Shown here: positions 33,841 through 50,590 of the stretch, one piece after another | How positions within the stretch are numbered: the stretch's first letter is position 1 | How the letters are laid out: each line of letters begins with the position of its first letter | Assembly: GCA_020697715.1 (NCBI GenBank) | Contig: JAEHCO010000002.1 | Coordinates: forward strand, 128,001 to 192,000 | Source of the DNA: Methanobacteriota archaeon | GTDB lineage: Archaea > Thermoplasmatota > Thermoplasmata > SG8-5 > JAGLSY01 | Length of the DNA stretch: 64,000 nt | Reading direction: 5' to 3' | Translations under genes and position numbers: made by a program | Notes under the pieces: model-generated | What the model was told of the DNA's origin: nothing | Databases searched by the model: none | Seen by the model: the letters and a program-made list of their open reading frames with translations, nothing else

Positions 33841-33920
33841 TCAGATGCCTCTCAGGCTTTCTTTCAATCTGGATAGCTCGTCCTGTCGCTTTCTCCAGGC
33901 ATCTTCTTTATCAGTTAAGG
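33841..33920 (-). repeat. Right boundary repeat (current 3' end of the coiled-coil gene)
   Basis: Matches 26806-26885; mismatches fall mostly at synonymous positions. Confidence 0.9.
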
Positions 33921-36270
33921 CTTGTTCTCTATCATCCAGTTCCTTGAGGCGATCCTTCATCTCCACTTCCACTTTCTCGCGGAGCTCGTCCTCTTTCTTT
34001 TCCAGAGTCCATTCTCTCTGTGTGAGCTTGTCCTCTTTTGCTTTGGCGGCTTCCTCACGGTCCTTGAGCTCATTGGAATAATGCTCCAGCTCATCACGTT
34101 CTTCCATGACCTTGGCCAGCTCGGTCCTTATCGAAGCAAGTTTCGTGTCAGCTTCAGCTTCCTTCTTGGCCAGTTCTTTCTCTTTCGCTTTTATTTCGGT
34201 ATTGGAGAGCTTGATATCCTCGGTCTTCTTGGAATGTAGTTTTTCTTTCTTCGCTTCCTCGCGCTCCAGCTTCTTTCTCTCTGTTTCTAATGCTTTTTCC
34301 GCTGCTGCCAAGGTGGAATCCTTGTCATCCAGATCCTGCTCTCTTTCGTCGAGCAGGGAGGATGTCTTTCCCAATTCCTGGAAACGATTGTCCAACTCGG
34401 CTTTTATTCCTTGAAGCCGAGATTCTTCCCCGTCCAGCTCTTCCGCTCTCTGATTTAAATTCGCTTCTATATCTGATAGTGATGTTTCTTGCTCGTCCAG
34501 CTTCTTCGACCTGCGATCGAGCTTTCTCAGCTCGTCTCTCGCGATCTTTTTCTGTTCCTTCTCCAGGGCCGCGAGCTCGACTTCTTTATCTTCCAGCTTG
34601 TCCTCGTGCAGGGTGGCCTTCTCCTCTCTCTTTTTTATTTCCGCGGCCTTCATTTCCAGCTCTGTTCCGAGATCGACCAATTCGCCCAGTCTCTTATCCA
34701 GCTTCTGGAATTCTCTTTTGGCCTGCCGATCTTTCTTTCTTAGATCGGCTTCGAGGTCTTTCACACTGGCTTCTAATTTTTCCAGGGCGGCCATCTCGGC
34801 TTTCAGCCTCTCGTCATCCAGAGTTATCGCCTTCTCCCTCTTGGTGAGCTCCCTCTGGATATTTCTTAAGGATTTCTTCTCATCCTTCAGGGCTTCGGAC
34901 ATATCCGTAGTACGTTTCTCAAGTCCCCCCAGCTTTCTCAGCTCCTTGTCGAGCTTCACCCGGTCCGCGTCAAAGGTCTTGCGCGCGTCCACGAACAATT
35001 TCATGTCCCGCTCGAGGGAGATCCTCTCAGCTTCCATCTCCTCTTTTTCCTTGGTAATTGATTCTGATTCTGATTCCAGTGAACTTAGATCCGCCTCGAT
35101 GGCCTTCTTCTCCTTCGCCAGCTTCCGTAGCTCAAGGTCGGTCTGTTTCTTTTTCGCGGCCAGGTCCTTCTCCATATCTTTCAATTTTGCCTCTAATTTC
35201 TTGACCTGGTCAGACTTCTTGTTTACTTCGCCGGCCTCTGTCTGAACTGACTTCGCCCTCTCCAAAAGATCCTTCTCGATCCTCTGGAGATTATCTTCGG
35301 TCTTCAGAAGGTCAGCCTCTTTTTTCACATATTCCGTTATCTTGGCTTCGAGCTGGGCCTGGGCTTCTCTTTGTCTATTGGTCTCTTCTGATATATCTCG
35401 CCAGATGGATTCCAATTCCGCTCTTTCATTGGCCAGAACATCCTGTGATCGTCCAATATCCGCATTTCTTGCTTCCATGTCGGATTCCTTCACAGACAGC
35501 AATTTTTCTTTGTCTTCCAAAGAACTTTCTTTTTCTGCCAGGAGCTTCTCCATCTTCAGGAGGTCTTCCTCCTTGGCCTCAAGCTTCATCGCCTCGACCT
35601 TTTTCTCGGCCAGCACCATGACATCTTCCTCTGTCAGCTCTTTTTTATTGGCAGTGGTGTAGTGCTTCAGAAGTGCGACAGAACCCATCTTCACGGATTC
35701 CAATTCACCTTTTAATTTATCGATGGTCATCTGCCTGGCAAGAGCATCTTCTCTTTCCAGGGCCAGCTCTCTGGACCTGTCGCCGAGCGCTGCCTCCGTG
35801 TTCTTGAGGTCGTGCTCCCTCCGGGCCTGGGCCTCCAGGGCCTTCCTCTCCTGGGCAATGCGATCTTTCTCCTCGCTTCCAACCTGCCCCATGATGATAT
35901 CCAGATCAATACTGCCTCCAATGACAGTGTCCGGATACTGGTCCTTGATATGCGCCAAGCTCACGCTGGATGATTTGTAAGAGTATGAATGAATTTCCAG
36001 GATGCAATCTTCTTTTATGGAATCCCTGGCTATTTCCAATATTGCTTCCTCGCCGATGGAATCTTCCACCGAGGAATGGGATGCCAGCATCGCCTTCCCC
36101 TTCTTTATCACGATATGCCCTATCGATATACTGCCGTCCCTCACATAGCTTGTCTTGATGAAGCCGTCGATACCTTGGCTATCGAATTCATTCAATAGGT
36201 CTTCCAATGCTGTTTTGCTTCCAAAGGCCGTCTTCAATATCCTTCCGCTGGGCAGTCTCATAAATATCAT
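33841..36270 (-). CDS. Long coiled-coil protein with N-terminal DUF2226-like domain
   Basis: MRLPSG...DGFIK N-terminal alpha/beta domain followed by ~650 aa of E/K/L heptads; no Walker A. Confidence 0.75.
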   Translation of the reverse strand: MIFMRLPSGRILKTAFGSKTALEDLLNEFDSQGIDGFIKTSYVRDGSISIGHIVIKKGKAMLASHSSVEDSIGEEAILEIARDSIKEDCILEIHSYSYKSSSVSLAHIKDQYPDTVIGGSIDLDIIMGQVGSEEKDRIAQERKALEAQARREHDLKNTEAALGDRSRELALEREDALARQMTIDKLKGELESVKMGSVALLKHYTTANKKELTEEDVMVLAEKKVEAMKLEAKEEDLLKMEKLLAEKESSLEDKEKLLSVKESDMEARNADIGRSQDVLANERAELESIWRDISEETNRQREAQAQLEAKITEYVKKEADLLKTEDNLQRIEKDLLERAKSVQTEAGEVNKKSDQVKKLEAKLKDMEKDLAAKKKQTDLELRKLAKEKKAIEADLSSLESESESITKEKEEMEAERISLERDMKLFVDARKTFDADRVKLDKELRKLGGLEKRTTDMSEALKDEKKSLRNIQRELTKREKAITLDDERLKAEMAALEKLEASVKDLEADLRKKDRQAKREFQKLDKRLGELVDLGTELEMKAAEIKKREEKATLHEDKLEDKEVELAALEKEQKKIARDELRKLDRRSKKLDEQETSLSDIEANLNQRAEELDGEESRLQGIKAELDNRFQELGKTSSLLDEREQDLDDKDSTLAAAEKALETERKKLEREEAKKEKLHSKKTEDIKLSNTEIKAKEKELAKKEAEADTKLASIRTELAKVMEERDELEHYSNELKDREEAAKAKEDKLTQREWTLEKKEDELREKVEVEMKDRLKELDDREQALTDKEDAWRKRQDELSRLKESLRGI

Positions 36271-37910: not shown

Positions 37911-38381
37911 TTGCAACCGATGATTGATAATCCAATATTGAAATGGCGGATATACCCCATCAAATCAAAAAATATGCACTCACTACTGAAACAAGATAAT
38001 CCAATATATATTAAGTATCCTGTTCGCACCCCATCAAAAAAATACAAGCCAGAAATGAGCGAAAATGATCTTGTCTTTTTTTATATTGCCAAGAAAAAAA
38101 TAATAACACATTATGCTAAAATTCAATCTGTTTCAATTTATTATCCTGAGCAGATTTTAAAAGATGTAATAAATAATACTCAGATGACTATTGATGAGTT
38201 TCAAAATTACTCTAAAAATAGACGGGATTGCCCATTAATTGCATTTAAACTTGATAAAATATCTAATATGAATAAGGTTTTCTACCCCATGTACCATGTT
38301 TCAATGACTGGTAGATTTTTTAAACACGATGAGATTTATGTAATCGAATCTTTAATTAATCAAGATGTTTATGGCGATTAA
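37911..38381 (+). CDS. DUF365-like PUA/ASCH-fold protein
   Basis: IYPI...IKY...DLVFFY...AKI...EFQNY...VSMTGRF pattern; true start may be ATG 37920. Confidence 0.6.
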   Translation: MQPMIDNPILKWRIYPIKSKNMHSLLKQDNPIYIKYPVRTPSKKYKPEMSENDLVFFYIAKKKIITHYAKIQSVSIYYPEQILKDVINNTQMTIDEFQNYSKNRRDCPLIAFKLDKISNMNKVFYPMYHVSMTGRFFKHDEIYVIESLINQDVYGD

Positions 38382-38680: not shown

Positions 38681-39277
38681 TTATATTCCAATTTTTTCCC
38701 GGCTTTCGCAAGCATAGCATTTTCCACATGGTTTATCTCCGAAATTCCTGCCATCTTTCCAACAAGACCAAGTTAATTCAAAATAGTCATTAAATCCTTT
38801 ACTAATGCCATAATCTAGTAAATTCATTTTAGTTAGGTCAATATAAGGCGCTTCAAATCTTATTCTAGCATCCTCTTTATTATTTCGAACCCCCTCACTT
38901 ATACCTTTATTCAAAATATCTATAATCTCTTTTGAAGTATCTTCAGTATCGTCTGAATTGAATCCAAGCAAAACAGTAGAATAATTATCATAATTTGATT
39001 CTATATATGAGGCGGCAATTAGCATCAGGATCATATTTCGACAAGGAAATCCATCTGGCCTATTCCAAGTAAGTCCAACATTTAAATTAATTATTTTATC
39101 ATTAAATGATCCCTTTTCTGATATGTTCTTAACAGCTTTTCTTTCATTATAAAGGGCTGTTTGGCCCCGATTAAAAAATATGGGCTTTACTTCTTCATAT
39201 TGGTTAATTGCATCCAGGGTTAAAATTGTCGAATCAAGTCCACCAGAGAATAATGGATATGCAATCCCTCTTTTCAT
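38681..39277 (-). CDS. queC: QueC-like 7-cyano-7-deazaguanine synthase (PP-loop ATPase)
   Basis: SGGLDST, PCRN, TWSC...PCGKCYAC Zn site. Confidence 0.85.
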   Translation of the reverse strand: MKRGIAYPLFSGGLDSTILTLDAINQYEEVKPIFFNRGQTALYNERKAVKNISEKGSFNDKIINLNVGLTWNRPDGFPCRNMILMLIAASYIESNYDNYSTVLLGFNSDDTEDTSKEIIDILNKGISEGVRNNKEDARIRFEAPYIDLTKMNLLDYGISKGFNDYFELTWSCWKDGRNFGDKPCGKCYACESREKIGI

Positions 39278-39328: not shown

Positions 39329-40231
39329 TTAATTTAAATTATTAATTGTAAAAACCAATTCATCTAAAGAATATTTGGTTTTCATGCCTTGAAAATCCCA
39401 CAATAGTTTCTTTGTTGATTTTATTTTTTTTATTGTGGCTTGGGTGGGCAATACGATATAACTAATGTCTAACTCATCCATTACTGTTTTCATTATTACT
39501 GCTTGAATACTATTGGGTCTCATATAAGCAATATGGAAATCGTATTCTGTTTTGTTTAGATATTTATGAAGTCTTTCAATTGTTGTAGTCTTGTATATTT
39601 CTATTTCTTTTTTATTTAGTGACCTAAGATCACACTCATATGCATAAAAGGGAAAGGTTCTGTGGTATTCTTCAGGTATTGGTGCTGATGCATTTGATAC
39701 AACAAGCCAATGAATATTATCTAGATTGTTATCTACTTTATCCTTTAGATGAGCAAATATTTTATTAAAAGTATCTGAAATGAGATATGGCTTAGTACTT
39801 GAACAAGTGGTCCAAAAAGCAATGTTTTTATGTTTTGGTTTTGAGTAGTTATTAACAATATCAAAATGAGCCTTTTCAAAATGTTCATGTAAAAAACATG
39901 TTCCTAATATTCCATTATAATCTCGTTTATTATAATCAATTATCATTCTATCATATTTCCCAATAAGCTCATTGTGGTAATCATTTATATCGCTTATATC
40001 TATGGAGTTTAACAATGAAAACACAACAGTCTCCATCAATTTTTCTTTTTTTCGGGATTCAATATTGATTTGATTATTTTTCAAGAAATTGGTGACAACC
40101 CATATAGGAGCACTATCTAATATTCTTACCAAATCAATGACTAGATATCTATTTGTTTTGTCTGGAATATCAAGTGTTTCTATGTCTATATACTTGTGAC
40201 TCATAGCACGACGATTAATTTTTGATACCAT
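39329..40231 (-). CDS. ArcS-like (DUF5591) domain protein
   Basis: CSSTKPYLISDTF...HWLVVS...PIPEEY...FPFYAYE resembles ArcS PCSxxKPYSxSxSH...VPRELE..YP..HYD. Confidence 0.7.
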   Translation of the reverse strand: MVSKINRRAMSHKYIDIETLDIPDKTNRYLVIDLVRILDSAPIWVVTNFLKNNQINIESRKKEKLMETVVFSLLNSIDISDINDYHNELIGKYDRMIIDYNKRDYNGILGTCFLHEHFEKAHFDIVNNYSKPKHKNIAFWTTCSSTKPYLISDTFNKIFAHLKDKVDNNLDNIHWLVVSNASAPIPEEYHRTFPFYAYECDLRSLNKKEIEIYKTTTIERLHKYLNKTEYDFHIAYMRPNSIQAVIMKTVMDELDISYIVLPTQATIKKIKSTKKLLWDFQGMKTKYSLDELVFTINNLN

Positions 40232-40268: not shown

Positions 40269-42590
40269 TTATACAAAGAATTTAGAAAAGGCATCTTCAC
40301 AATCAACAGGACGATTATCTGTTTGATATCTTGACATATCATTCATAAGGGATTTATATTCATCTTCATCTTCAACATAAAGTGCTTCTAATGAACATAG
40401 CCATTCAACAAATTCTGGCATCTGCTTTCCAGAGTATACTTTTTCAAATACAGACCCTCTTAAAACTCCTATCCATTCGCCCTTCCACCGACCATCAACA
40501 ATAGCACAGTGAACATAATTATCGTCCAATTCAAAATCACAACCATTCCAATGTACAATAAATTGTAAAGAATGGCCACCCATTCTTTGTGCCTCGTATG
40601 ATTGAGGGGAGGCTCGGCAAGCTATAAGAATCCACTTACCATTTGATAATGGAATAATGAAGTCTTCTCCTCTAAGAGAGGATCTCCCAACAGGCATGTG
40701 TAAATCTAATGATCCATACAAACCTGCAAGGGGTGCATCAGAACATCTGGATGGTCCCCCAAAGAAGGGTATGTGCTCATCTTCTAAATGGAGTCTTACT
40801 TGTTCTTCAAGTATGTTTAACTTAATATTACGTTTAATTTGTTGAACTCTTTTATCGATAATTGCCTCGTGCAAATTTTCATTAGTTGGATGAGTCATAT
40901 TCTTTTTTTTCTCAATCATTTTGGCTAAGCCATTTGATATGTATTCTTCAGATTCTGCACTTGCTGGAGCGCCCCTCATGAATGCATGAATTCCAGTTGC
41001 TGCTCTTCCAGTATCAATCTCATTTTCAATTTCTTTTGCTGTCAGTTCACACCAGTAACTAGCTATAATTGCATTTGTCCTAAGTGAGTATGAATTACGT
41101 TCTAAAATAAATGTTTTTAATGCATTTAATCGTTCATCTATATTGGTAATTGTCATTATAGTATTCAAACCACTCACAATTTCTTCTATGTCAATTCCTA
41201 TAAGATCTTGTATATTTGATTCTGATTGATAAGTCCGCTTTAGTAAATCAAAAGGAAGAATTGCCACATCTATATCAACCTCATCAAAATTATAAGTTTT
41301 TCCAAATTTGAATGTATTTTGTTCGATAATAATAATTCCCTCCCTCTCAAGCTGGTCTAACTGATTTTTCAATGAATGATATCTGAATTTGAAAGCAGGC
41401 ATATAATACTCTATCTTAGAAATTAGTGAATTTCGAGTTCTTGATTCTTTGATATCTTCCTTAATTTTATCCAATAGTTCTTCAGGTTCCAGAATGAATG
41501 AATCTTCAAAACTTATAAAAATCGTCTCTTGCTGTGGACTCTTAATTGTTCTTTCATAGAATAATTCATATATGAATTCTTTGTAAATATTAATAACCAG
41601 TCTGTTCCCATTAGAGTCTGGAGGGCAGGTTCTATCTAATACTGGCAATAGCATTTCAGAATGGTTGATCAAGTTGTCATCCTCTATAACTAAAATTTTT
41701 GATGATTCTAATCGTTCTATTATTTCATCCGCTAAGGTTTCTGTATAAAAATGCCTCTCATTTTGGTAAAAATCAGAGCAAAGTTCCCTAAATTTTATAC
41801 CTGTAACTTCGTTATTAAAAAGAAGTAGTGTATATAGTAAGAAAATAAGTATACCTTCTTTGTGATTATGTTCATTAATATCATCAATACTTCCATTAAT
41901 CGGACTCACAGGATAATTTAAAATTTCTTCTTTAAGTTTTAGAACATAAGGGTTGTTTGTTAGATTCTCTACCTTCAATACGGATTTTATTATCTCAATT
42001 ATGGCTTCTTCTCGAGTTTTTGCATCTGCAATGTTCTTTTTAATATCTCTAAATATATGCTCTACATCTTCTGCAGTATGGGCAGTTAGACGATTATTAG
42101 TTTTGATCTCATTTTCAATATCTGCTGCATTCTTCATCTCGAATTCTGTAATCATAGAATGATTTGAGCCGATAAAATAAACATAATCAAAAATTAGGGT
42201 TGCTGAGGAATATATCCATCCTTTCCAGGTTCTTGCGTCACCCATGATTGCCAATATCGATATTACATCACCATGTGATTTCCATACCTGTGTTACTTGA
42301 TTAACGAGTCCCCAAAAATAAGTGTCTGAATTCTCAGCGGATTTTCTATGGGTTGCCCAAATCACTACTTTTTTATCATCAATTTCTCTTGTGAATTCAA
42401 TATCTGTAATAAAATGAAGAGCAGAATCATCTTCACCCTCTGTCGATAAATCCTGCTGTGACGTCAAATCCTTAATGATTCCTTTTTCTTCAAGAGGCTT
42501 CAGGGCTTCCTCAATGAGATCCTCTATATATCTCCCAACTTTTCCTTGTAAGGCTTGTTGTTGTCTATGTATTCTAACCACACTTCCCAA
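40269..42590 (-). CDS. 773-aa protein with N- and C-terminal restriction-endonuclease-like folds
   Basis: GRYIEDLIEEAL...TDIEF...VIWAT and LEEQVRLHL...EDFII...LIACR...AIVDG; start codon uncertain. Confidence 0.5.
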   Translation of the reverse strand: MGSVVRIHRQQQALQGKVGRYIEDLIEEALKPLEEKGIIKDLTSQQDLSTEGEDDSALHFITDIEFTREIDDKKVVIWATHRKSAENSDTYFWGLVNQVTQVWKSHGDVISILAIMGDARTWKGWIYSSATLIFDYVYFIGSNHSMITEFEMKNAADIENEIKTNNRLTAHTAEDVEHIFRDIKKNIADAKTREEAIIEIIKSVLKVENLTNNPYVLKLKEEILNYPVSPINGSIDDINEHNHKEGILIFLLYTLLLFNNEVTGIKFRELCSDFYQNERHFYTETLADEIIERLESSKILVIEDDNLINHSEMLLPVLDRTCPPDSNGNRLVINIYKEFIYELFYERTIKSPQQETIFISFEDSFILEPEELLDKIKEDIKESRTRNSLISKIEYYMPAFKFRYHSLKNQLDQLEREGIIIIEQNTFKFGKTYNFDEVDIDVAILPFDLLKRTYQSESNIQDLIGIDIEEIVSGLNTIMTITNIDERLNALKTFILERNSYSLRTNAIIASYWCELTAKEIENEIDTGRAATGIHAFMRGAPASAESEEYISNGLAKMIEKKKNMTHPTNENLHEAIIDKRVQQIKRNIKLNILEEQVRLHLEDEHIPFFGGPSRCSDAPLAGLYGSLDLHMPVGRSSLRGEDFIIPLSNGKWILIACRASPQSYEAQRMGGHSLQFIVHWNGCDFELDDNYVHCAIVDGRWKGEWIGVLRGSVFEKVYSGKQMPEFVEWLCSLEALYVEDEDEYKSLMNDMSRYQTDNRPVDCEDAFSKFFV

Positions 42591-42679
42591 AGGTGAAATT
42601 TATTTATAAAAAGTCGTTAAATATAAATTCAATTTGTTAAAATATTTCTTAACAAAGGTAAAAATATTTTATATCTATA

Positions 42680-42961
42680 TTGGGCTTTGTGAAAAGCATA
42701 CTAGAGAAAATAAAAGCATTAGGGTCAGAAACTTCTTTTAACATTATTAAAATACTTGATGAGAATGAAATGACTGCAAAGGAAGTTTTCGACATATATA
42801 ATTCAAAATTCCAGCCTACTAAGCGAAGAGAAACCATTTATATAGCTCTAGAAAAACTTGTTGATGCAGAAATTCTTAAAAAAACATATAATAATAAAGA
42901 TAAACGAGTTAAGTATTCACTAAATAATGATGATCTTAATATTAATTTCAAGGATCTGTAG
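42680..42961 (+). CDS. Winged-HTH (ArsR-like) regulator heading the tgt-MTase operon
   Basis: KALGSETSFNIIKIL...MTAKEV...RETIYIALEKLVDAEIL...VKYSL. Confidence 0.75.
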   Translation: MGFVKSILEKIKALGSETSFNIIKILDENEMTAKEVFDIYNSKFQPTKRRETIYIALEKLVDAEILKKTYNNKDKRVKYSLNNDDLNINFKDL

Positions 42962-42963
42962 GA

Positions 42964-44094
42964 GTGTTGAATAGATTGGATTTTGTGCCTGCGTATGGTG
43001 GACGATTTAAAAAAGAGAAACATTGGTATAATCAAAGGTATTGGTTAGAGGATATATGCAATGATGTTCTTGTAAGTGCGTATTACACTATGCAAGTTCC
43101 AGAGATGAAACTTGTATCCTATCTTGAATTAAAAAAGGAGAATAGATTGTTTGTAGATAGTGGTGGATTTACTGAGCTTACTAAGGGGATGGGGAATTAT
43201 TTTGATCAGCCAGATACGGTTATGAAGAACCTCGATAAAATAAAGAAAGAATATGAAAAGAAACAAATATCAATATTGAAATATCAAGAACAACAGAATG
43301 CAGATGTAGCATTTACACTAGACATTCCTCTACTTCCAAAACTGGATATTAAATTGAAGAAAAAATTGATTGAAATCACAAAAAACAATGCAAAAATTGC
43401 CTTTGATAATAGAAAAAATAAAAATGTTAAGCTATATCCAGTTGTTCAAAGCTGGTCATTTGAAACCGCAAAAGATCTTGCATCATATTATCAGAATCTT
43501 GAGATTGATGGGATGGGAGTTGGAGGTTTAGTGCCTTATTCTTCTAATTTAAAAAAAAGATTAGAAATCTTAATTGGAGTTAGATCAGAAACAACGTTGC
43601 CAATACATGCATTAGGAACTACTGGCATTCCTCATTTATACGCTTTAGCAGCCATTAATATTAATAGTGTTGATAGTAAAACATACGCAGATTATAGCCG
43701 ATTTCGTCATTTTATAAACCCACAAACCAATAAGCGATGCTGTGTTGGATTAAATGTAAAAACTGAGAAAAAATATAGATTCGAGAAATTGCCATGCAAT
43801 TGTCAAATATGCCAATGGATTAAAGATAATAAAAAAGAATTAGGTATTAAGTTTGAAAGTGATTATTATGCAAAATCAGATAGTGCTGCTTCTTCTAAAT
43901 TGGCGTTGCACAATCTAATGGTGATTATAGATGAAGTGAATGAAATTAATGAAGCTATTAAGATTAATAATTTTGACCAATTAGTTGAAAGAAAGCGTAG
44001 TGTGAATAGAAGTATAGACCGAGCCATAAGAACATTAGAAAAGCTATTGATTGAAAAGCCAAAATTCAAGAAAATAATTGATATAAATCTTTGA
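42964..44094 (+). CDS. tRNA-guanine transglycosylase-fold enzyme (TGT/DpdA-like)
   Basis: DSGGF, TLDIP, PVVQ, GGLVP, HALG, SVDS, CNCQIC...HN Zn site; no C-terminal PUA. Confidence 0.88.
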   Translation: MLNRLDFVPAYGGRFKKEKHWYNQRYWLEDICNDVLVSAYYTMQVPEMKLVSYLELKKENRLFVDSGGFTELTKGMGNYFDQPDTVMKNLDKIKKEYEKKQISILKYQEQQNADVAFTLDIPLLPKLDIKLKKKLIEITKNNAKIAFDNRKNKNVKLYPVVQSWSFETAKDLASYYQNLEIDGMGVGGLVPYSSNLKKRLEILIGVRSETTLPIHALGTTGIPHLYALAAININSVDSKTYADYSRFRHFINPQTNKRCCVGLNVKTEKKYRFEKLPCNCQICQWIKDNKKELGIKFESDYYAKSDSAASSKLALHNLMVIIDEVNEINEAIKINNFDQLVERKRSVNRSIDRAIRTLEKLLIEKPKFKKIIDINL

Positions 44095-44164: not shown

Positions 44165-45028
44165 ATGCCAGATAATACAAATAATACTAAAGAAGCATCA
44201 AAGCTAACAAAGGAAGAATGGCGTGAGTACACACAAAATGTTTGGTCCATTATGAATATAAGCCACGAGAACCACCCTGCTGTATTTAACCCCGAAATAC
44301 CACATAGATTAATAAAAATGTTTTCATTTGTTGGAGAAACTGTTTTGGATCCATTTGCGGGCACAGGCACAACAATGATTGTTTCCAGAAAATTGAACAG
44401 AAATTCAATTGGAATAGAATTAAACAAAGAATATTGTAAAATGATTGAAGAAGAACTGCAACAAAAATCTCTATCTGCTTTTGAATCAAATAATATAACT
44501 TCGCATGATATTATTAATGCTGACAGTCTAGAATATTTAAAGCAAATTGAAGAAAAATCAATTGACTTAATTACCACAAGCCCTCCCTACTGGAATAAAG
44601 CCCAATACAGTGAGAACAGCAATGACCTAGGCAACATTGATGAATATGAACAATTTATAGATTCAATGCATGTTTTTTTTGAAGAATGTCTCAGGATTTT
44701 AAAACCAGGGCGACGACTATGCATAGTAACTGCAAATGTTCATCAAGATACAGAATATGGCCTCCAGCGATTTCCTCTAGCAAGTGATTATAATGTTCTT
44801 GCTCGCAAAATTGGATTTTTATTAGTTGGCGAGGTAATATGGTCAAAAGCAAATACTGGCGGAAAATGGGGTTCTTATGGTGCCCAACGACCTATTTTTG
44901 GTAGCTACCCTTATCCACCTAATTTCTGCTTCAAAGACTTACATGAATACATTCTAATATATAGAAAAAAACCAAATACAAAAAAAAGGATGAAAAAACC
45001 AAATACAAAAAAAGAAAAAAAGGGATGA
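44165..45028 (+). CDS. Site-specific amino-DNA methyltransferase (SPPY, likely N4-cytosine), circularly permuted
   Basis: HPAVF, DPFAGTGTT (motif I) precedes TSPPY (motif IV); RILKPG; HEYILIYRK. Confidence 0.9.
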   Translation: MPDNTNNTKEASKLTKEEWREYTQNVWSIMNISHENHPAVFNPEIPHRLIKMFSFVGETVLDPFAGTGTTMIVSRKLNRNSIGIELNKEYCKMIEEELQQKSLSAFESNNITSHDIINADSLEYLKQIEEKSIDLITTSPPYWNKAQYSENSNDLGNIDEYEQFIDSMHVFFEECLRILKPGRRLCIVTANVHQDTEYGLQRFPLASDYNVLARKIGFLLVGEVIWSKANTGGKWGSYGAQRPIFGSYPYPPNFCFKDLHEYILIYRKKPNTKKRMKKPNTKKEKKG

Positions 45029-45130
45029 ATTCGCAATAAGATTATCCAATTATCATCCTACTAGGAATTAGCCAGTCAATTTTCTGGTAAAGTTGGGCGA
45101 GCCCCTATTCCCAACAGCCTCTAAACTGTT

Positions 45131-46231
45131 TCAAAGCATCAGCTCCAAATCATCCCTTGGATCACTAATCATCTTTTGATGATACTTAACCAAATTATCC
45201 TTCACGGCTACATTTTTAGTCTTATGTACCTGGTTAGAGACCTTGATTCGGTGGTTTTTGTCAATATGGAGTAAATTTTGGTCAACCGCTCCGTGGTGAA
45301 TCTTACATAGGGAAAGTCCGTTTGCTGGGTTAAGTCTGTTGTCCAGGTCCTTATTCCAAGGGTGAATATGGTGAGCATCTAGTAAGCTTTCCAAATTGAA
45401 TTGGCAAACACAACATTGGTATTCAAAAAACCAAAGTACTCGTTTTCTGAATTGATTTTGGCCTACACGTACCTTTTGTGGGGACCATGTGTTTTCGACT
45501 CGATAGTTTCTTTGAACATCTACCTGTTCGATTACCTCTTCTAAGTATGAGTAATCTTCTGGATTATCGAATAGCTTCCTGTAGGTTCCTTGATTGTCTA
45601 CGAATTCAATATATCCATCATCTCGAAGGAACTGTAGCTGCTGACGGATCTTTGGTTTGATGTTACTGTTATTTGGAAATTTCTTTTCCAGAACTGGTTG
45701 AAAAATGTTAATATCATTTAGGGAGAATTGGGATGAAGGAATCTCTCGGACTAACTTTAAAACTTCTTCTTTCCAGGAATATTTGATCTCCTCAAAGGGA
45801 TTTTCCGGTTCGACAAATGAGATATAATAGGTGTCCGGTTTACCTGACAATTTCTCAAATCTGAGTTGTGGGCGCATTGTATCTTGGAGTTTCACACTAT
45901 CAGAAAAAAGGTCGAAATGGATTGGAAACAATTTTGTCAGTATTCTTTCAAGATCAGTGTACCAGAAAAGGCGTGATTCTTCAGAAACTGGCTTCCCTTG
46001 ATAACTACGAGGATTTCCAAGTTCTAATCGAGCTTTGAATTGTGATTGATTATAGACAAGTGTAACTTCTTTTTTGGTACCAAGGTTCATTGAGTCAATA
46101 CCGAAATAGTTACGAACCTCTTTTGGAATACCAGTACCTCTATGAGTGAATGCAGATTTATCTAGGGTTTTTATCGCAACCTCTTTTGAGGGTAAGTTCC
46201 ATGAATAATATGAGGGCATGTTAATACTCAT
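45131..46231 (-). CDS. Modification-dependent HNH endonuclease with DpnI-type winged-helix domain
   Basis: FSLNDI...FPNNSNIKPKIRQQLQFLRDDGYIEF (DpnI C-terminal wH) plus CCVC...LDAHHIHPW...NGLSLCKIHH. Confidence 0.85.
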   Translation of the reverse strand: MSINMPSYYSWNLPSKEVAIKTLDKSAFTHRGTGIPKEVRNYFGIDSMNLGTKKEVTLVYNQSQFKARLELGNPRSYQGKPVSEESRLFWYTDLERILTKLFPIHFDLFSDSVKLQDTMRPQLRFEKLSGKPDTYYISFVEPENPFEEIKYSWKEEVLKLVREIPSSQFSLNDINIFQPVLEKKFPNNSNIKPKIRQQLQFLRDDGYIEFVDNQGTYRKLFDNPEDYSYLEEVIEQVDVQRNYRVENTWSPQKVRVGQNQFRKRVLWFFEYQCCVCQFNLESLLDAHHIHPWNKDLDNRLNPANGLSLCKIHHGAVDQNLLHIDKNHRIKVSNQVHKTKNVAVKDNLVKYHQKMISDPRDDLELML

Positions 46232-48025: not shown

Positions 48026-50590
48026 TTATCCCGATGGCGGTGGTGGATAGCTTGGAGGTTGATTCAATGGCTGTTGATACTGTTGCTGTTGTTGTTGCTG
48101 AGGCGGCTTCTTACGTGCGAAGGCAATACCTACAACTACCACTACAACTATTATTACCAGTAATATGATCCAGAGAAAGCTTGACGACTCATCATTGCTT
48201 ATGGCGGAGTCTTTTGGAGCTATGTCTTCAGTATCTGATACACCATCACCATCGTCATCCTCATCCTCATTGTCCCCTATACCATCACTATCTGTGTCAG
48301 TATCTTCATCAGGATCTAATGGGAAGTCATCTTTAGAATCTGGTGTTCCATCGTCATCGTCGTCATTATCTGCATTGTCTCCAATACCATCACTATCACT
48401 GTCTATAGTTTCATTTGAATCTAATGGGAAATCATCTTTAGAATCTAGAACCCCATCATCATCATCATCAGTATCTGCATTGTCACCAATGCCATCTTTA
48501 TCAGTATCAGTATCTTCATCAGGATCTAATGGGAACGCATCATTAGAATCAAATATTCCATCGTCATCGTCGTCATTATCCGCATTATTTCCTATACCAT
48601 CTAAATCCGAATCTAAAGATTCTAGTGGATCAAATGGAAATGCGTCAGTTAAATCAGGAACTCCATCATTGTCATCATCAGTATCCCTTTCATCCGGTAT
48701 TCCATCATTATCAAAATCAGGAGGTGGTGTAACATAGAAATATCCTGTAAAGAAACTTGTTGTGAATTTCCGATCTGTAATTGAGACACCATATGCAGAG
48801 AGATCAAGAAGATTAACTGTGTTGTTATAATGGCTCCATATGCTTGTATAACCATATTTTAAATCAAGACTTCCTGAAACCTCAACCATCGCTAAATGAA
48901 CCAGATATGGATACATGTCTGTAAGATGTCCAGAGTCTGTATAATTGACTGAAACTTCAATAGGACCTGTAAAGGACAGTGGACCGGTGGTGGTTGTATC
49001 ATCCCAGGTGCCATCGATTGGTGTATTTGAATCGTCCCAAATATAAGATGAAGTTGTTTTTTGATGAAGCCAGATCTCATCCATTATTAGCGTAGTCAAA
49101 TCAATATTGAACATCAGATCCATAGTTCTATCGAACTCCAGTCCCATCCAATCAGAAAACTGTTGACCTATTGACATTAAAGAAGACCATCCTGGCAATC
49201 CCGAATTGATTAAGGCATCGATATATGGTATTAAATCAATAGTGGCAACATTGAAACTAGTATCAATTTGGTGGACATCACCCAATGAGTCTGATGCAAT
49301 CAAATCATCAACTTCAACCATCACATTCCAAAAGTAAAATGTCGTTCCTTTGATTTCTATTGATGATTGATCCGGGTATTGCGGGTTTGTTGTTGGTATC
49401 GGTAAATCGAATGTCTTTACATTATCAAACGAATCTCCATAACCTAGAAAATTAATTTCAAAATGTGGCAATATTGAAATTATGTATTCATCATTTGAGG
49501 AATATAGACTATTTTCAATATCATAATAGTCATCCTTAAAATCTGTGACATCAACAATAAGGTCACCAACATGAGAAATTTCTACATCCACAACAAGAGA
49601 AATCCAAAACATAATTTCAAAAGGCCATGGTATATTTACATATTCTGTTGATATTTCAGGATATAATATTTTCGTGTAATCTGTAATTAATCCATAGGAA
49701 TCATATTCTGAATCAATTTCATTTGAGTTAATGTATTGGCTGTAAGCGAATTCAACAACATGAACTGTGGCTGAAACTGTTGATGAAGTAACTGTATCAT
49801 AAACTGTGAGTGATACTGAAAAGCTGCCTGTTTCTGTGTATATATTGTATCCAACATCATTTGAATCTCCATGACCATCTCCAAAATCCCATTCAAATGT
49901 TAAAGTATCTGCATTTGGATCAAAACATGATGCTGAAAGATATACTGGCTCATACTGTGAAACATATAAGTCTGATTTCCCAATTACTTCAATATCTCCC
50001 AATATAGGAGCAACATTCCAATTGAACAATTCTGCTTTGTAGATTATATAACAATCTTTTTCTGCTGATTGATTGTCATTTTCTCCATCATATGGGCCAA
50101 ATGTTATAGGCCCTGTTTTTAAAGATTGATAATCCAAGGTGTGACTGTATGAATAGCTACTAGCACTAGGTACATAATCAAGTTGATCATCATCCAAAAT
50201 GTCTTCATCCCAGACTGTGATTGAAAATTTAATGGATGAATAATTTCCTAAGAGAACGAAATCATAATAAAATGGATTTATCAGATCTGGACTGTCCTCA
50301 AATGTTTCACTGCGTATATCATTATCATAAGTTCCATCTGCGTCTTCATCAAGCTCAATACGGAAGTACGGGTCACCATAGAATAGAGGATCTCCAAGCC
50401 AAGAATCATCTAAATAATCATATAAATCTTCGGAATATTCAAGTATTGATATCCTCAGGTATGGAGACCAGTCATTCGATGCTTGAACATTATTTTCTAT
50501 AGGTATTGTTATTAAATTTAATAATAGAATTATTACACAAATGTAGGATATTTGTTTTGACTTCATCTCTTCCACCTCAAATATGTGCAA
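48026..50590 (-). CDS. Secreted membrane-anchored protein with C2-like, PKD and TSP3 repeats
   Basis: Signal peptide; GDPYF...VWDED; WDFGDG PKD; DxDxDGIGDNAD repeats; TM plus Q/P tail. Confidence 0.75.
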   Translation of the reverse strand: MHIFEVEEMKSKQISYICVIILLLNLITIPIENNVQASNDWSPYLRISILEYSEDLYDYLDDSWLGDPLFYGDPYFRIELDEDADGTYDNDIRSETFEDSPDLINPFYYDFVLLGNYSSIKFSITVWDEDILDDDQLDYVPSASSYSYSHTLDYQSLKTGPITFGPYDGENDNQSAEKDCYIIYKAELFNWNVAPILGDIEVIGKSDLYVSQYEPVYLSASCFDPNADTLTFEWDFGDGHGDSNDVGYNIYTETGSFSVSLTVYDTVTSSTVSATVHVVEFAYSQYINSNEIDSEYDSYGLITDYTKILYPEISTEYVNIPWPFEIMFWISLVVDVEISHVGDLIVDVTDFKDDYYDIENSLYSSNDEYIISILPHFEINFLGYGDSFDNVKTFDLPIPTTNPQYPDQSSIEIKGTTFYFWNVMVEVDDLIASDSLGDVHQIDTSFNVATIDLIPYIDALINSGLPGWSSLMSIGQQFSDWMGLEFDRTMDLMFNIDLTTLIMDEIWLHQKTTSSYIWDDSNTPIDGTWDDTTTTGPLSFTGPIEVSVNYTDSGHLTDMYPYLVHLAMVEVSGSLDLKYGYTSIWSHYNNTVNLLDLSAYGVSITDRKFTTSFFTGYFYVTPPPDFDNDGIPDERDTDDDNDGVPDLTDAFPFDPLESLDSDLDGIGNNADNDDDDDGIFDSNDAFPLDPDEDTDTDKDGIGDNADTDDDDDGVLDSKDDFPLDSNETIDSDSDGIGDNADNDDDDDGTPDSKDDFPLDPDEDTDTDSDGIGDNEDEDDDGDGVSDTEDIAPKDSAISNDESSSFLWIILLVIIVVVVVVGIAFARKKPPQQQQQQQYQQPLNQPPSYPPPPSG

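Follow-up and report, generated by a model that had tools for sequence, protein, structure and literature searches.

Marks based on 7-deazaguanine have been shown in the DNA of bacteria (the Dpd system), phages, and archaeal viruses (PMC10516641, PMC5699537). Among the papers listed by a literature search, none by its title or abstract reports 7-deazaguanine DNA modification in cellular archaea. Here we analyze a gene on the minus strand (39329..40231) of a 64,000-nucleotide stretch of DNA, referred to below as the window, from a Methanobacteriota archaeon placed in the Thermoplasmatota (assembly GCA_020697715.1, contig JAEHCO010000002.1, positions 128,001 to 192,000). This open reading frame (ORF) of 300 amino acids (aa), with an ATG start, encodes an ArcS2-like protein made of an N-terminal helical domain and a DUF5591 core, the latter being the C1 catalytic domain of ArcS. 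We put at roughly 60% the probability that it is an ArcS2-type enzyme converting DNA-borne 7-cyano-7-deazaguanine (preQ0) to an amidine within an island for 7-deazaguanine marking of DNA. All steps of the pathway beyond the identity of the domain are drawn from homology and genomic context.

A stand-alone ArcS core together with a DNA transglycosylase is a kind of system already known from viruses. The ArcS proteins of phages and viruses consist of the C1 core alone and have been named ArcS2 (Hutinet et al. 2023, PMC10516641), and the arrangement of ArcS2 with the transglycosylase DpdA is already published for Vibrio phage nt-1 and the Sulfolobus virus STSV2 (PMC10516641). The nt-1 genes have been assayed in Escherichia coli, where DpdA2 alone produced the deoxynucleoside of preQ0 (dPreQ0) in plasmid DNA and DpdA2 with ArcS produced 2'-deoxyarchaeosine (dG+) (PMC10516641). 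Per 10^6 nucleotides, dPreQ0 went from 926 and 1607 to 0 and 11 when ArcS was present, and dG+ stood at 4 and 7 (PMC10516641, Table 3). Since dPreQ0 was nearly gone and dG+ was scarce, we infer that this test leaves room for an unmonitored product, an inference that is ours and not the authors'. STSV2 encodes DpdA and ArcS2, and its DNA held the deoxynucleoside of 7-carboxy-7-deazaguanine (dCDG), not dG+ (PMC10516641). Within the literature searched, the term DUF5591 occurred only in Hutinet et al. 2023 (PMC10516641), and a term search of a 2026 survey of the QueC family (PMC13329287) returned no mention of ArcS, DUF5591, or DpdA.

The canonical enzyme from T. kodakarensis is a lysine transferase acting on preQ0, and RaSEA is required for the formation of archaeosine (G+) (Fujita et al. 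2024, PMC11298593). This ArcS does not require the shape of tRNA. The nucleoside of preQ0 and its 5'-monophosphate are substrates and the free base is not, the Michaelis constant (Km) for the free nucleotide is very high at 433 uM, and the lysine adduct blocks reverse exchange by arcTGT, the archaeal tRNA-guanine transglycosylase (PMC11298593). According to an older review, ArcS in vitro may use glutamine, asparagine, or ammonia (PMC5699537). Two further systems are relevant here. In type IV CBASS, the QueC-like Cap9 and the TGT-like Cap10 conjugate a 7-deazaguanine to a partner protein (bioRxiv 10.1101/2025.04.06.647259), and the bacterial Dpd system of Salmonella Montevideo, DpdA/DpdB/DpdC plus DpdD-K, is taken up below (PMC5699537, PMC10164549).

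Residues 125-262 of the window protein match PF17884 (DUF5591) at 40.4 bits, where the gathering cut-off is 26, with an E-value of 3.4e-10. The two NCBIfam ArcS-alpha equivalog models give 34.6 bits (cut-off 600) and 28.3 bits (cut-off 440), confined to the DUF5591 stretch. Because both scores are far under their cut-offs, the protein cannot be counted as a canonical ArcS, even though the domain is there. Pfam detects no PUA or TGT domain in it and shows DUF5591 only, so that the TGT-like N domain, the C2 domain, and the PUA domain of canonical ArcS are all missing. Profile-profile comparison aligns residues 112-300 with the whole of the short stand-alone DUF5591 proteins of viruses and archaea (99.8%, E 3.3e-30, 186 columns), a set that includes an archaeal copy (L016) whose near relative sits on a viral contig (L032). 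From this match and the structural alignment with 2q07 described below, the C1 core is placed at approximately residues 116-300 (39332..39886, minus strand).

The published ArcS signature is PC-X3-KPY-X2-S-X2-H (PMC10516641, PMC5699537). Its central part, C-X3-KPY-X2-S, is found in the alignments as C143-SST-K147-P-Y149-LI-S152 (39776..39805, minus strand), with C143, K147, P148, Y149, and S152 followed by P186-E-E188, P194, and Y198. When the window protein is aligned with the ArcS encoded by the host and with 11 further DUF5591 proteins, C143, K147, P148, Y149, S152, H174, P186, E188, and Y198 are invariant. An exhaustive search of 1.84 billion representatives recovered 85 proteins at E <= 0.001, among which the cysteine is present in 83, P148 in 84, Y149 in 82, S152 in 78, and P186 and Y198 in 84 each; every residue of the C-X3-KPY-X2-S core occurs in 75-84 of the 85. 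The window protein retains all of these near-universal core residues, and the match is not due to chance.

The predicted fold agrees with the sequence. An AlphaFold2 model built on the alignment of the 85 proteins from this exhaustive HMMER search reached a mean predicted local distance difference test (pLDDT) score of 96.4 and a predicted template modelling (pTM) score of 0.92, compared with a pLDDT of 37.7 for a single-sequence run. When the model was searched with VIA-align against about 48,000 PDB representatives, the best match was chain A of 2q07 (Z 14.9, rmsd (root-mean-square deviation) 2.4 A, 138 residues, spanning 119-300 of the model). The runners-up had Z of 7.4-7.6, and a second look over the top 1000 Foldseek chains gave the same picture; in Foldseek itself 2q07 (E 3.7e-5) was the sole PDB match at E <= 0.001. 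This entry is AF0587 of Archaeoglobus fulgidus, deposited as a "protein of unknown function", and it has the same fold core together with the ArcS motif, which reads PC-TAR-KPY-LT-S-RT-H in the aligned stretch. The two proteins differ in that they are only 17% identical, 2q07 has extra residues that are unmatched, and the N-terminal domain of the window protein has no counterpart there. The best viral match, in BFVD, was a DUF5591 protein of Vibrio phage nt-1 (Foldseek E 6.2e-10, target TM score 0.77, rmsd 2.7 A, 218 columns). The first-pass annotation of this DNA, made from the sequence alone, had read the gene as a stand-alone ArcS catalytic domain without PUA or TGT-like domains, carrying a CSxxKPY motif and a P-x-E..P..Y pattern. 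Pfam, the model, and the 2q07 fold bear this out, both motifs are where it placed them, and superposition on the ArcS domain, which had been set beforehand as the test of the claim, was obtained.

After 2q07, the DUF5591 core resembles many enzymes of the uracil-DNA-glycosylase (UDG) superfamily (SMUG1, UdgX, family 4 UDG, and TDG) at Z of 5.5-7.6. It also matches, at Z 5.2, YaaA of E. coli, a member of DUF328, to which DpdC belongs. These middling values may reflect a shared alpha/beta arrangement only.

The neighboring genes suggest what the core acts upon. A QueC-like PP-loop enzyme of 198 aa (38681..39277, minus strand) is encoded 51 bases downstream. It matches PF06508 (E 2.1e-25) and the PADLOC QueC model (1.3e-22), scores 79.4 bits on TIGR00364, under that model's cut-off of 150.3, and has the SGGxDS loop and four cysteines in common with the host QueC. 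On the other strand, 2.7 kb from the ArcS2-like gene, lies a gene for a DpdA-like transglycosylase of 376 aa (42964..44094, plus strand) that consists of a TGT catalytic core only. This protein scores 60.2 bits on PF01702 (cut-off 26.3) and 67.7 bits on tgt_general (cut-off 47.6), and matches the PADLOC DpdA model at 2.2e-7. Its residues D65, D120, D237-S238, and C278/C280/C283/H316 are invariant with the host arcTGT; we take D65, D120, and D237 to be the catalytic aspartates and C278/C280/C283/H316 to be the zinc site. The protein ends where the C-terminal, tRNA-binding domains of the host arcTGT begin, and is shorter by some 280 residues. A C1 core without tRNA-binding domains and a DpdA-type transglycosylase, here 2.7 kb away, are what would be expected of an ArcS2, and both were found. 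Given the adjoining TGT core and QueC-like enzyme, the ArcS core most likely finishes a 7-deazaguanine mark in DNA, by analogy with the viral systems.

The host has an archaeosine pathway of its own. In its assembly (2.12 Mb, 93.8% complete), another contig carries arcTGT, as an ORF of 658 aa (L011:547-2523, minus strand), and a full-length ArcS of 596 aa. RaSEA (TIGR01210) has its sole match in the assembly on another contig, at 364 bits against a cut-off of 212, and QueD, QueC, and a QueE-like gene stand side by side on another contig. Since this tRNA set is complete elsewhere in the genome, the host needs no island gene for archaeosine in tRNA. The host arcTGT itself contains a partial C-terminal match to DUF5591 (profile positions 1-72, E 1.8e-7), where the residues P-E-S-N-KPY-S-R-T-H correspond to the ArcS signature with a glutamate replacing the cysteine.

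Transglycosylase genes accompany such cores at other loci as well. We inspected five other stand-alone DUF5591 loci (L014, L016, L032, L033, and Methanobacterium virus PhiF1); for the viral contigs the scan profile of DUF5591 cores held 8 sequences, and L014 and L016 supplied part of the sequences in the TGT and QueC profiles, and both loci were identified independently by Pfam or BLAST. A TGT-like neighbor is present at three of the five (L014, L016, and L032) and QueC at two. The metagenomic locus L014 encodes a member of the same subfamily, 39% identical to the window protein and cut by the contig end, alongside a TGT-like gene, a 255-aa protein of unknown type, QueC, a GIY-YIG gene, a ResIII/DEAD helicase, HerA, and NurA. 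On L016, a contig of 2191 bases in genome G072, a DUF5591 gene of 197 aa overlaps a TGT-like gene of 347 aa by 4 bases, and the viral contig L032 has the same arrangement, with DUF5591 overlapping the TGT-like gene. A DpdA-like profile had no match in the genome-contig and viral-contig collections. The first-pass annotation had called the ArcS domain detached from its TGT, which does not hold, as a TGT catalytic core lies in the divergent operon and the pairing recurs at three of five other loci. Its statement that no RaSEA gene is nearby is correct, the only match in the assembly being on another contig, and its suggestion of a non-tRNA substrate is probably the best reading given the neighbors.

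Putting these observations together, we propose that the island was acquired horizontally and would write a 7-deazaguanine mark into DNA. Host QueD and QueE would supply 7-carboxy-7-deazaguanine, which the island QueC-like enzyme together with the host QueC would convert to preQ0. The DpdA-like TGT core would then exchange guanine in DNA for preQ0. The ArcS2-like protein would bind the DNA-borne preQ0 nucleotide, and its C-X3-KPY-X2-S site would add an amine to the nitrile to give an amidine. The product would be dG+, for which ammonia from a donor could be used directly, or a lysine adduct could be made first and then cleaved by the host RaSEA. This conversion may lock the base against reverse exchange, and in a defense context the mark may serve to label the DNA of the cell itself or to protect it.

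Among the described systems that come close to the locus are those of nt-1 and STSV2. Like the window gene, nt-1 ArcS2 encodes the DUF5591 core by itself and is accompanied by genes for a DNA transglycosylase and for preQ0 (PMC6884629, PMC10516641), and its motif is likewise described as "slightly degenerated" (PMC10516641). The window protein differs in being encoded in a cellular archaeal island, in its additional N-terminal helical domain of about 115 aa, and in belonging to a clade separate from the viral-type stand-alone proteins in a tree that lacks the nt-1 sequence itself. STSV2 has the archaeal setting and the pair of DpdA with a C1-only ArcS in common with our locus, but it keeps the full PC-X3-KPY-X2-S-X2-H, which the window protein does not, and the host of the virus is without a deazaguanine pathway (PMC10516641), whereas the host here has one. 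With canonical ArcS/RaSEA of T. kodakarensis the window protein shares the catalytic domain and its core residues, but it is without the TGT-like N domain, C2, and PUA, and is not encoded with RaSEA. What is new at this locus is the cellular archaeal island, the separate clade whose members have an extra domain and an altered motif, and the co-occurring orphan gene for a 773-aa protein described below.

The likeness to the bacterial Dpd system extends to the genomic island, the DNA-directed TGT paralog, the extra gene for preQ0 synthesis, the enzyme that modifies the nitrile after insertion, and the restriction-type genes nearby (PMC5699537, PMC10164549). Unlike Dpd, the island has no DpdB or DpdC that we could find, and its nitrile is predicted to become an amidine by ArcS chemistry rather than an amide. 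Type IV CBASS resembles the locus in having QueC-like and TGT-like genes together in a defense island, but no CD-NTase or CBASS model matches in our island, DUF5591 is present in it, and its QueC-like protein is nearer to true QueC.

The window protein belongs to a small subfamily. Only nine of the 85 proteins, the query included, reach E <= 1e-30. The eight relatives (E from 4e-36 to 6e-62, 33-44% identity) all have the N-terminal domain, and 33 columns are invariant over the nine sequences in an alignment where identity to the window protein is 30-43%. Two of the eight carry further N-terminal extensions, and those of P0008 and P0009 match no significant Pfam family. At 90% identity the clusters of the eight relatives contain 1-2 sequences each. 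The named clusters come from metagenome-assembled genomes (MAGs) of Asgard archaea (Hodarchaeota, Helarchaeota, and Promethearchaeota), where the annotation goes no further than "DUF5591 domain-containing protein" or "predicted RNA-binding protein". Members P0006/P0091 and P0008 have consecutive NCBI accessions on one Promethearchaeota MAG contig of 35.9 kb and are tandem paralogs, one of them with an N-terminal extension of 250 aa. More widely, 54 of the 85 representatives are no longer than 330 aa, which indicates that stand-alone DUF5591 cores are common; in other representatives the core is joined with a TGT or a radical-SAM domain.

A FastTree phylogeny of DUF5591, computed on 147 columns from 91 rows of which all were kept, has 40 unresolved forks and contains neither the nt-1 nor the STSV2 sequence. 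It joins the ten subfamily members, L014 included, in one clade with support of 100 and a stem of 0.82. A word-indexed protein search with the ArcS2-like protein returned the query alone, and a PDB sequence search returned nothing. The subfamily profile, run over the contig collections, matched none of the genome contigs, none of the viral contigs, and one metagenome locus, L014. Of 401 genomes sampled from the phylum, 392 contain DUF5591 itself, and the subfamily profile matches 32 of the 401 at E <= 1e-10. Apart from the window gene, the frames of those matches are 474-688 aa long with two exceptions, a 199-aa frame in G072 and a 345-aa frame on a short contig of G244 (canonical-type, 178 bits). 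A set of 40 closer relatives, 74-94% complete and including 3 from the same genus, has 12 that match at E <= 1e-5, in the core only and in frames of 464-641 aa. These long-frame, core-only matches mean that the 300-aa gene was not found in the relatives searched.

The N-terminal domain (approximately residues 1-115; 39887..40231, minus strand) is defined by the helices of the AlphaFold2 model and by conservation, and is specific to the subfamily. The first-pass annotation had called this end of the protein short and unrelated; it is instead a helical domain of about 115 aa conserved across the subfamily. The helices span residues 28-40, 43-52, 62-75, and 79-89, and the invariant residues across the nine subfamily sequences are R36, D39, R103, Y105, G110, and F118. 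No Pfam family matches the domain at E <= 1, and there is no Atlas match. It has only weak fold matches, all of them small and helical, to T4 endonuclease VII in its C-terminal part (Z 7.4 over 54 residues), to the p53-binding domain of PIAS1 (PDB 1v66, Z 6.6), and to the SAP domain of a rice SUMO ligase (Z 5.6). We do not claim a DNA-binding fold for it, as Z values of 5.6-7.4 are within the range that the tool calls common. As a guess, the domain may bind nucleic acid in place of the missing PUA.

Several observations weigh against the interpretation as an ArcS2 acting on DNA-borne preQ0. The proline and histidine that flank the published motif are replaced in the window protein, by T142 and F155, with threonine at the first position in 9 of 9 subfamily sequences and phenylalanine at the last in 8 of 9. 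These two positions are not defining for the wider DUF5591 family, since only 45 and 44 of the 85 representatives have the proline and the histidine. The subfamily also has H190 where 46 of the 85 carry glutamate or aspartate, and E199 where 55 of the 85 carry aspartate; with the surroundings of the retained core altered in this way, the chemistry or the amine donor may differ. In the FastTree phylogeny, with its 147 columns and 40 unresolved forks, the long-branched subfamily clade sits apart from the stand-alone clade of G072, the viral contigs, and PhiF1, and likewise apart from the clade of the host ArcS. The nt-1 protein found in BFVD is only 17% identical to the window protein, and we can only presume that this entry is the protein that was assayed in the published experiments. 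The TGT-like protein is far under the equivalog cut-offs (TgtA, 77.6 bits of 350; DpdA, NF041059, 31.4 bits of 200, with a partial match over 130-241), and a tblastn search with it against phages gave no match. DpdB (ParB-like) and DpdC (DUF328) were not found among the island ORFs scanned with Pfam, NCBIfam, and PADLOC. The 773-aa partner in the operon matches nothing, which leaves the role of the island in defense or restriction-modification (R-M) a putative one.

The pairing with a transglycosylase also has exceptions. The viral contig L033 carries QueC and DUF5591 with no TGT within 6 kb, and the DUF5591 gene of Methanobacterium virus PhiF1 is without TGT or QueC in a 6.4-kb stretch at the genome end. 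The content of a locus is moreover an unreliable predictor of its product, as STSV2 DNA contained dCDG despite the presence of DpdA and ArcS2. In PhiF1, ORF75 (locus L027) bears the annotation "putative archaeosine tRNA-guanine transglycosylase", yet it encodes no TGT but a DUF5591 core standing alone.

Of the other explanations, the one that fares best, although we regard it as unlikely, keeps the pathway proposed above but gives it a different, undescribed end product. As the core would not recruit RaSEA, the final mark in DNA would be preQ0 carrying an amino acid (lysine-type) as an amidine adduct. The first-pass annotation had likewise suggested that an unusual product, an amidino or amino-acid adduct of preQ0, could be formed. 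The transfer of lysine by T. kodakarensis ArcS and its need for RaSEA to reach G+ (PMC11298593) would fit such an end point, as would the dPreQ0 that is mostly unaccounted for in the nt-1 test (PMC10516641), the lack of a RaSEA gene in the island or on its contig, and the subfamily's own changes near the site (F155, H190, and E199). The loss of dPreQ0 could equally reflect lower expression of DpdA2 or depletion of the free base, however, and the use of glutamine, asparagine, or ammonia has been reported for ArcS in vitro (PMC5699537). In addition, nt-1 ArcS2 gave dG+ in E. coli (PMC10516641), which has no RaSEA match over the cut-off in our set of control genomes. The host here does have RaSEA, and RaSEA-like domains occur elsewhere fused to C1-only domains, which indicates that a bare core can evidently work with RaSEA. 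With a host RaSEA elsewhere in the genome and such fusions in existence, the ordinary end product dG+ may well be what is formed.

These fusions were encountered in six proteins (P0012, P0013, P0014, P0016, P0021, and P0040), in which a RaSEA-like radical-SAM domain is joined to a C1-only DUF5591 without the TGT-like or PUA part. Their radical-SAM parts score 100-132 bits on TIGR01210, under the cut-off of 212, and their DUF5591 parts are over the Pfam cut-off in five of the six, P0014 having 23.9 bits against a cut-off of 26. Judged by sequence, they look like single-chain machinery for finishing archaeosine in two steps. We found no published description of them.

A second possibility, which we consider less likely again, is that RNA or free nucleotides, not DNA, are the substrate of the module, which would be a second, mobile pathway of the archaeosine type directed at tRNA, viral RNA, or the nucleotide pool. 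By family, the TGT core is indeed matched best by archaeal tRNA enzymes (TgtA, 6.4e-22; PDB 1iq8, 7.9e-12), ArcS accepts the 5'-phosphate of the preQ0 nucleoside (PMC11298593), and one subfamily member bears the annotation "predicted RNA-binding protein". On the other hand, the genome already holds the full tRNA set, and PUA and the other C-terminal domains of arcTGT and ArcS are absent from both island proteins. The neighbors of the window gene are DNA methylase and nuclease genes, and its counterpart on L014 sits with helicase, HerA, NurA, and GIY-YIG genes. The high Km of ArcS for the free nucleotide (433 uM; PMC11298593) also argues against this reading.

It is more improbable still that 7-deazaguanine is used here for protein modification or signaling as in type IV CBASS, with the 773-aa orphan as a conceivable partner. 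Such use is known for pairs of QueC-like and TGT-like proteins (bioRxiv 10.1101/2025.04.06.647259), a large unexplained protein heads the operon, and the QueC-like protein matches Cap9 weakly (PDB 9nto, E 0.003) as well as QatC (6.7e-5, in the P-loop region only). Its matches to true QueC are far stronger, however (2.1e-25 and 2.6e-22), and neither a CD-NTase nor a Qat partner was found among the island ORFs scanned. The CBASS chemistry uses the carboxylate (7-carboxy-7-deazaguanine, CDG) and not the nitrile, it offers DUF5591 no role, and DUF5591 is paired with TGT in the absence of such a partner on the 2.2-kb contig L016 and on the viral contig L032. Least credible is that a defense island carries the gene along in an inactive or decaying state, for although it is rare (no relative found in 40 related genomes, 1-2 members per database cluster) and its published motif is incomplete, its frame is intact, 33 columns are invariant over nine sequences, the model is confident throughout, and the near-universal core residues are kept.

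In the island, at approximately 38-50 kb, GC content is 0.29-0.39, compared with 0.39-0.52 in the rest of the window, and the flanks are housekeeping genes. As for borders, there is no tRNA in the window, there are no flanking direct repeats, and no integrase was seen among the flanking ORFs scanned; Rfam has no family within 36-52 kb. The ArcS2-like gene and the QueC-like gene form a same-strand trio with a first gene that encodes the 773-aa protein (40269..42590, minus strand), separated from the ArcS2-like gene by 37 bases. This protein belongs to no known family: it had no match in Pfam, NCBIfam, PADLOC, PHROGs, or PDB sequences, a word-indexed search returned itself alone, and the only leads were in the Atlas, to restriction-endonuclease clusters at 0.81-0.82.

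Between the trio and the genes for the regulator and the TGT-like protein is a divergent, AT-rich intergenic region of 89 bases (42591..42679, no strand assigned), a putative operator or promoter. The inverted repeat TTGTTAA-N8-TTAACAA can be read in this spacer at 42634-42655, and may be a candidate operator for the 93-aa winged-helix protein encoded next to it. This regulator, of ArsR/MsvR-like type (42680..42961, plus strand), lies 2 bases upstream of the TGT-like gene. It matches MsvR (2.9e-5), SdpR, and ArsR-type models of NCBIfam, all under cut-off, and Csa3 of PADLOC (3.1e-6).

Beyond the TGT-like gene the island encodes an N6/N4 DNA methyltransferase (44165..45028, plus strand; PF01555 3.7e-43, PADLOC MTase_II 2e-67) and a protein with a DpnI_C winged-helix domain and an HNH nuclease domain (45131..46231, minus strand; PF17726 1.6e-23, PF13391 1.7e-7), which also matches the PADLOC models HNH (3.6e-35) and mREase_II (1.3e-15). 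The latter is likely, from its domains, to be a separate modification-dependent restriction enzyme. A methylase that adjoins a probable methylation-dependent nuclease (44165-46231) is an odd pair unless their specificities differ. A 156-aa ORF at 37911-38381 was considered as a reader of the modified base and dropped, as its DUF365 match of 21.4 bits is under cut-off and the PDB gave nothing. The low-GC island further contains an 854-aa surface-type protein with PKD domains (48026-50590, minus strand), with three direct repeats spaced by 105 bases at 48225-48644. Elsewhere in the window, a highly charged, coiled-coil-like protein of 809 aa (33841-36270, minus strand) has a weak SMC match and lies in a stretch whose AT skew is -0.40 and GC skew -0.21.

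A more far-reaching proposal, which we offer as doubtful, is that the island is an archaeal chromosomal R-M-like system whose self-mark would be an undescribed lysine-type amidine of preQ0, or dG+ made with a borrowed RaSEA. Its writer would be a new clade of ArcS2 with an N-terminal domain that targets DNA, and the 773-aa protein would be the reader or nuclease.

The locus sharpens a chemical question about this family, in that canonical ArcS, a lysine transferase, needs RaSEA, whereas the formation of dG+ has been ascribed to stand-alone cores acting by themselves. An island of this kind in a host that bears RaSEA, together with the RaSEA-C1 fusions, offers a direct test of the route that stand-alone cores use, and the same setting would show whether the lysine adduct persists in DNA. 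If the island is active, this archaeon would mark its own chromosome with a base of the archaeosine type, by means of a variant enzyme with an extra domain.

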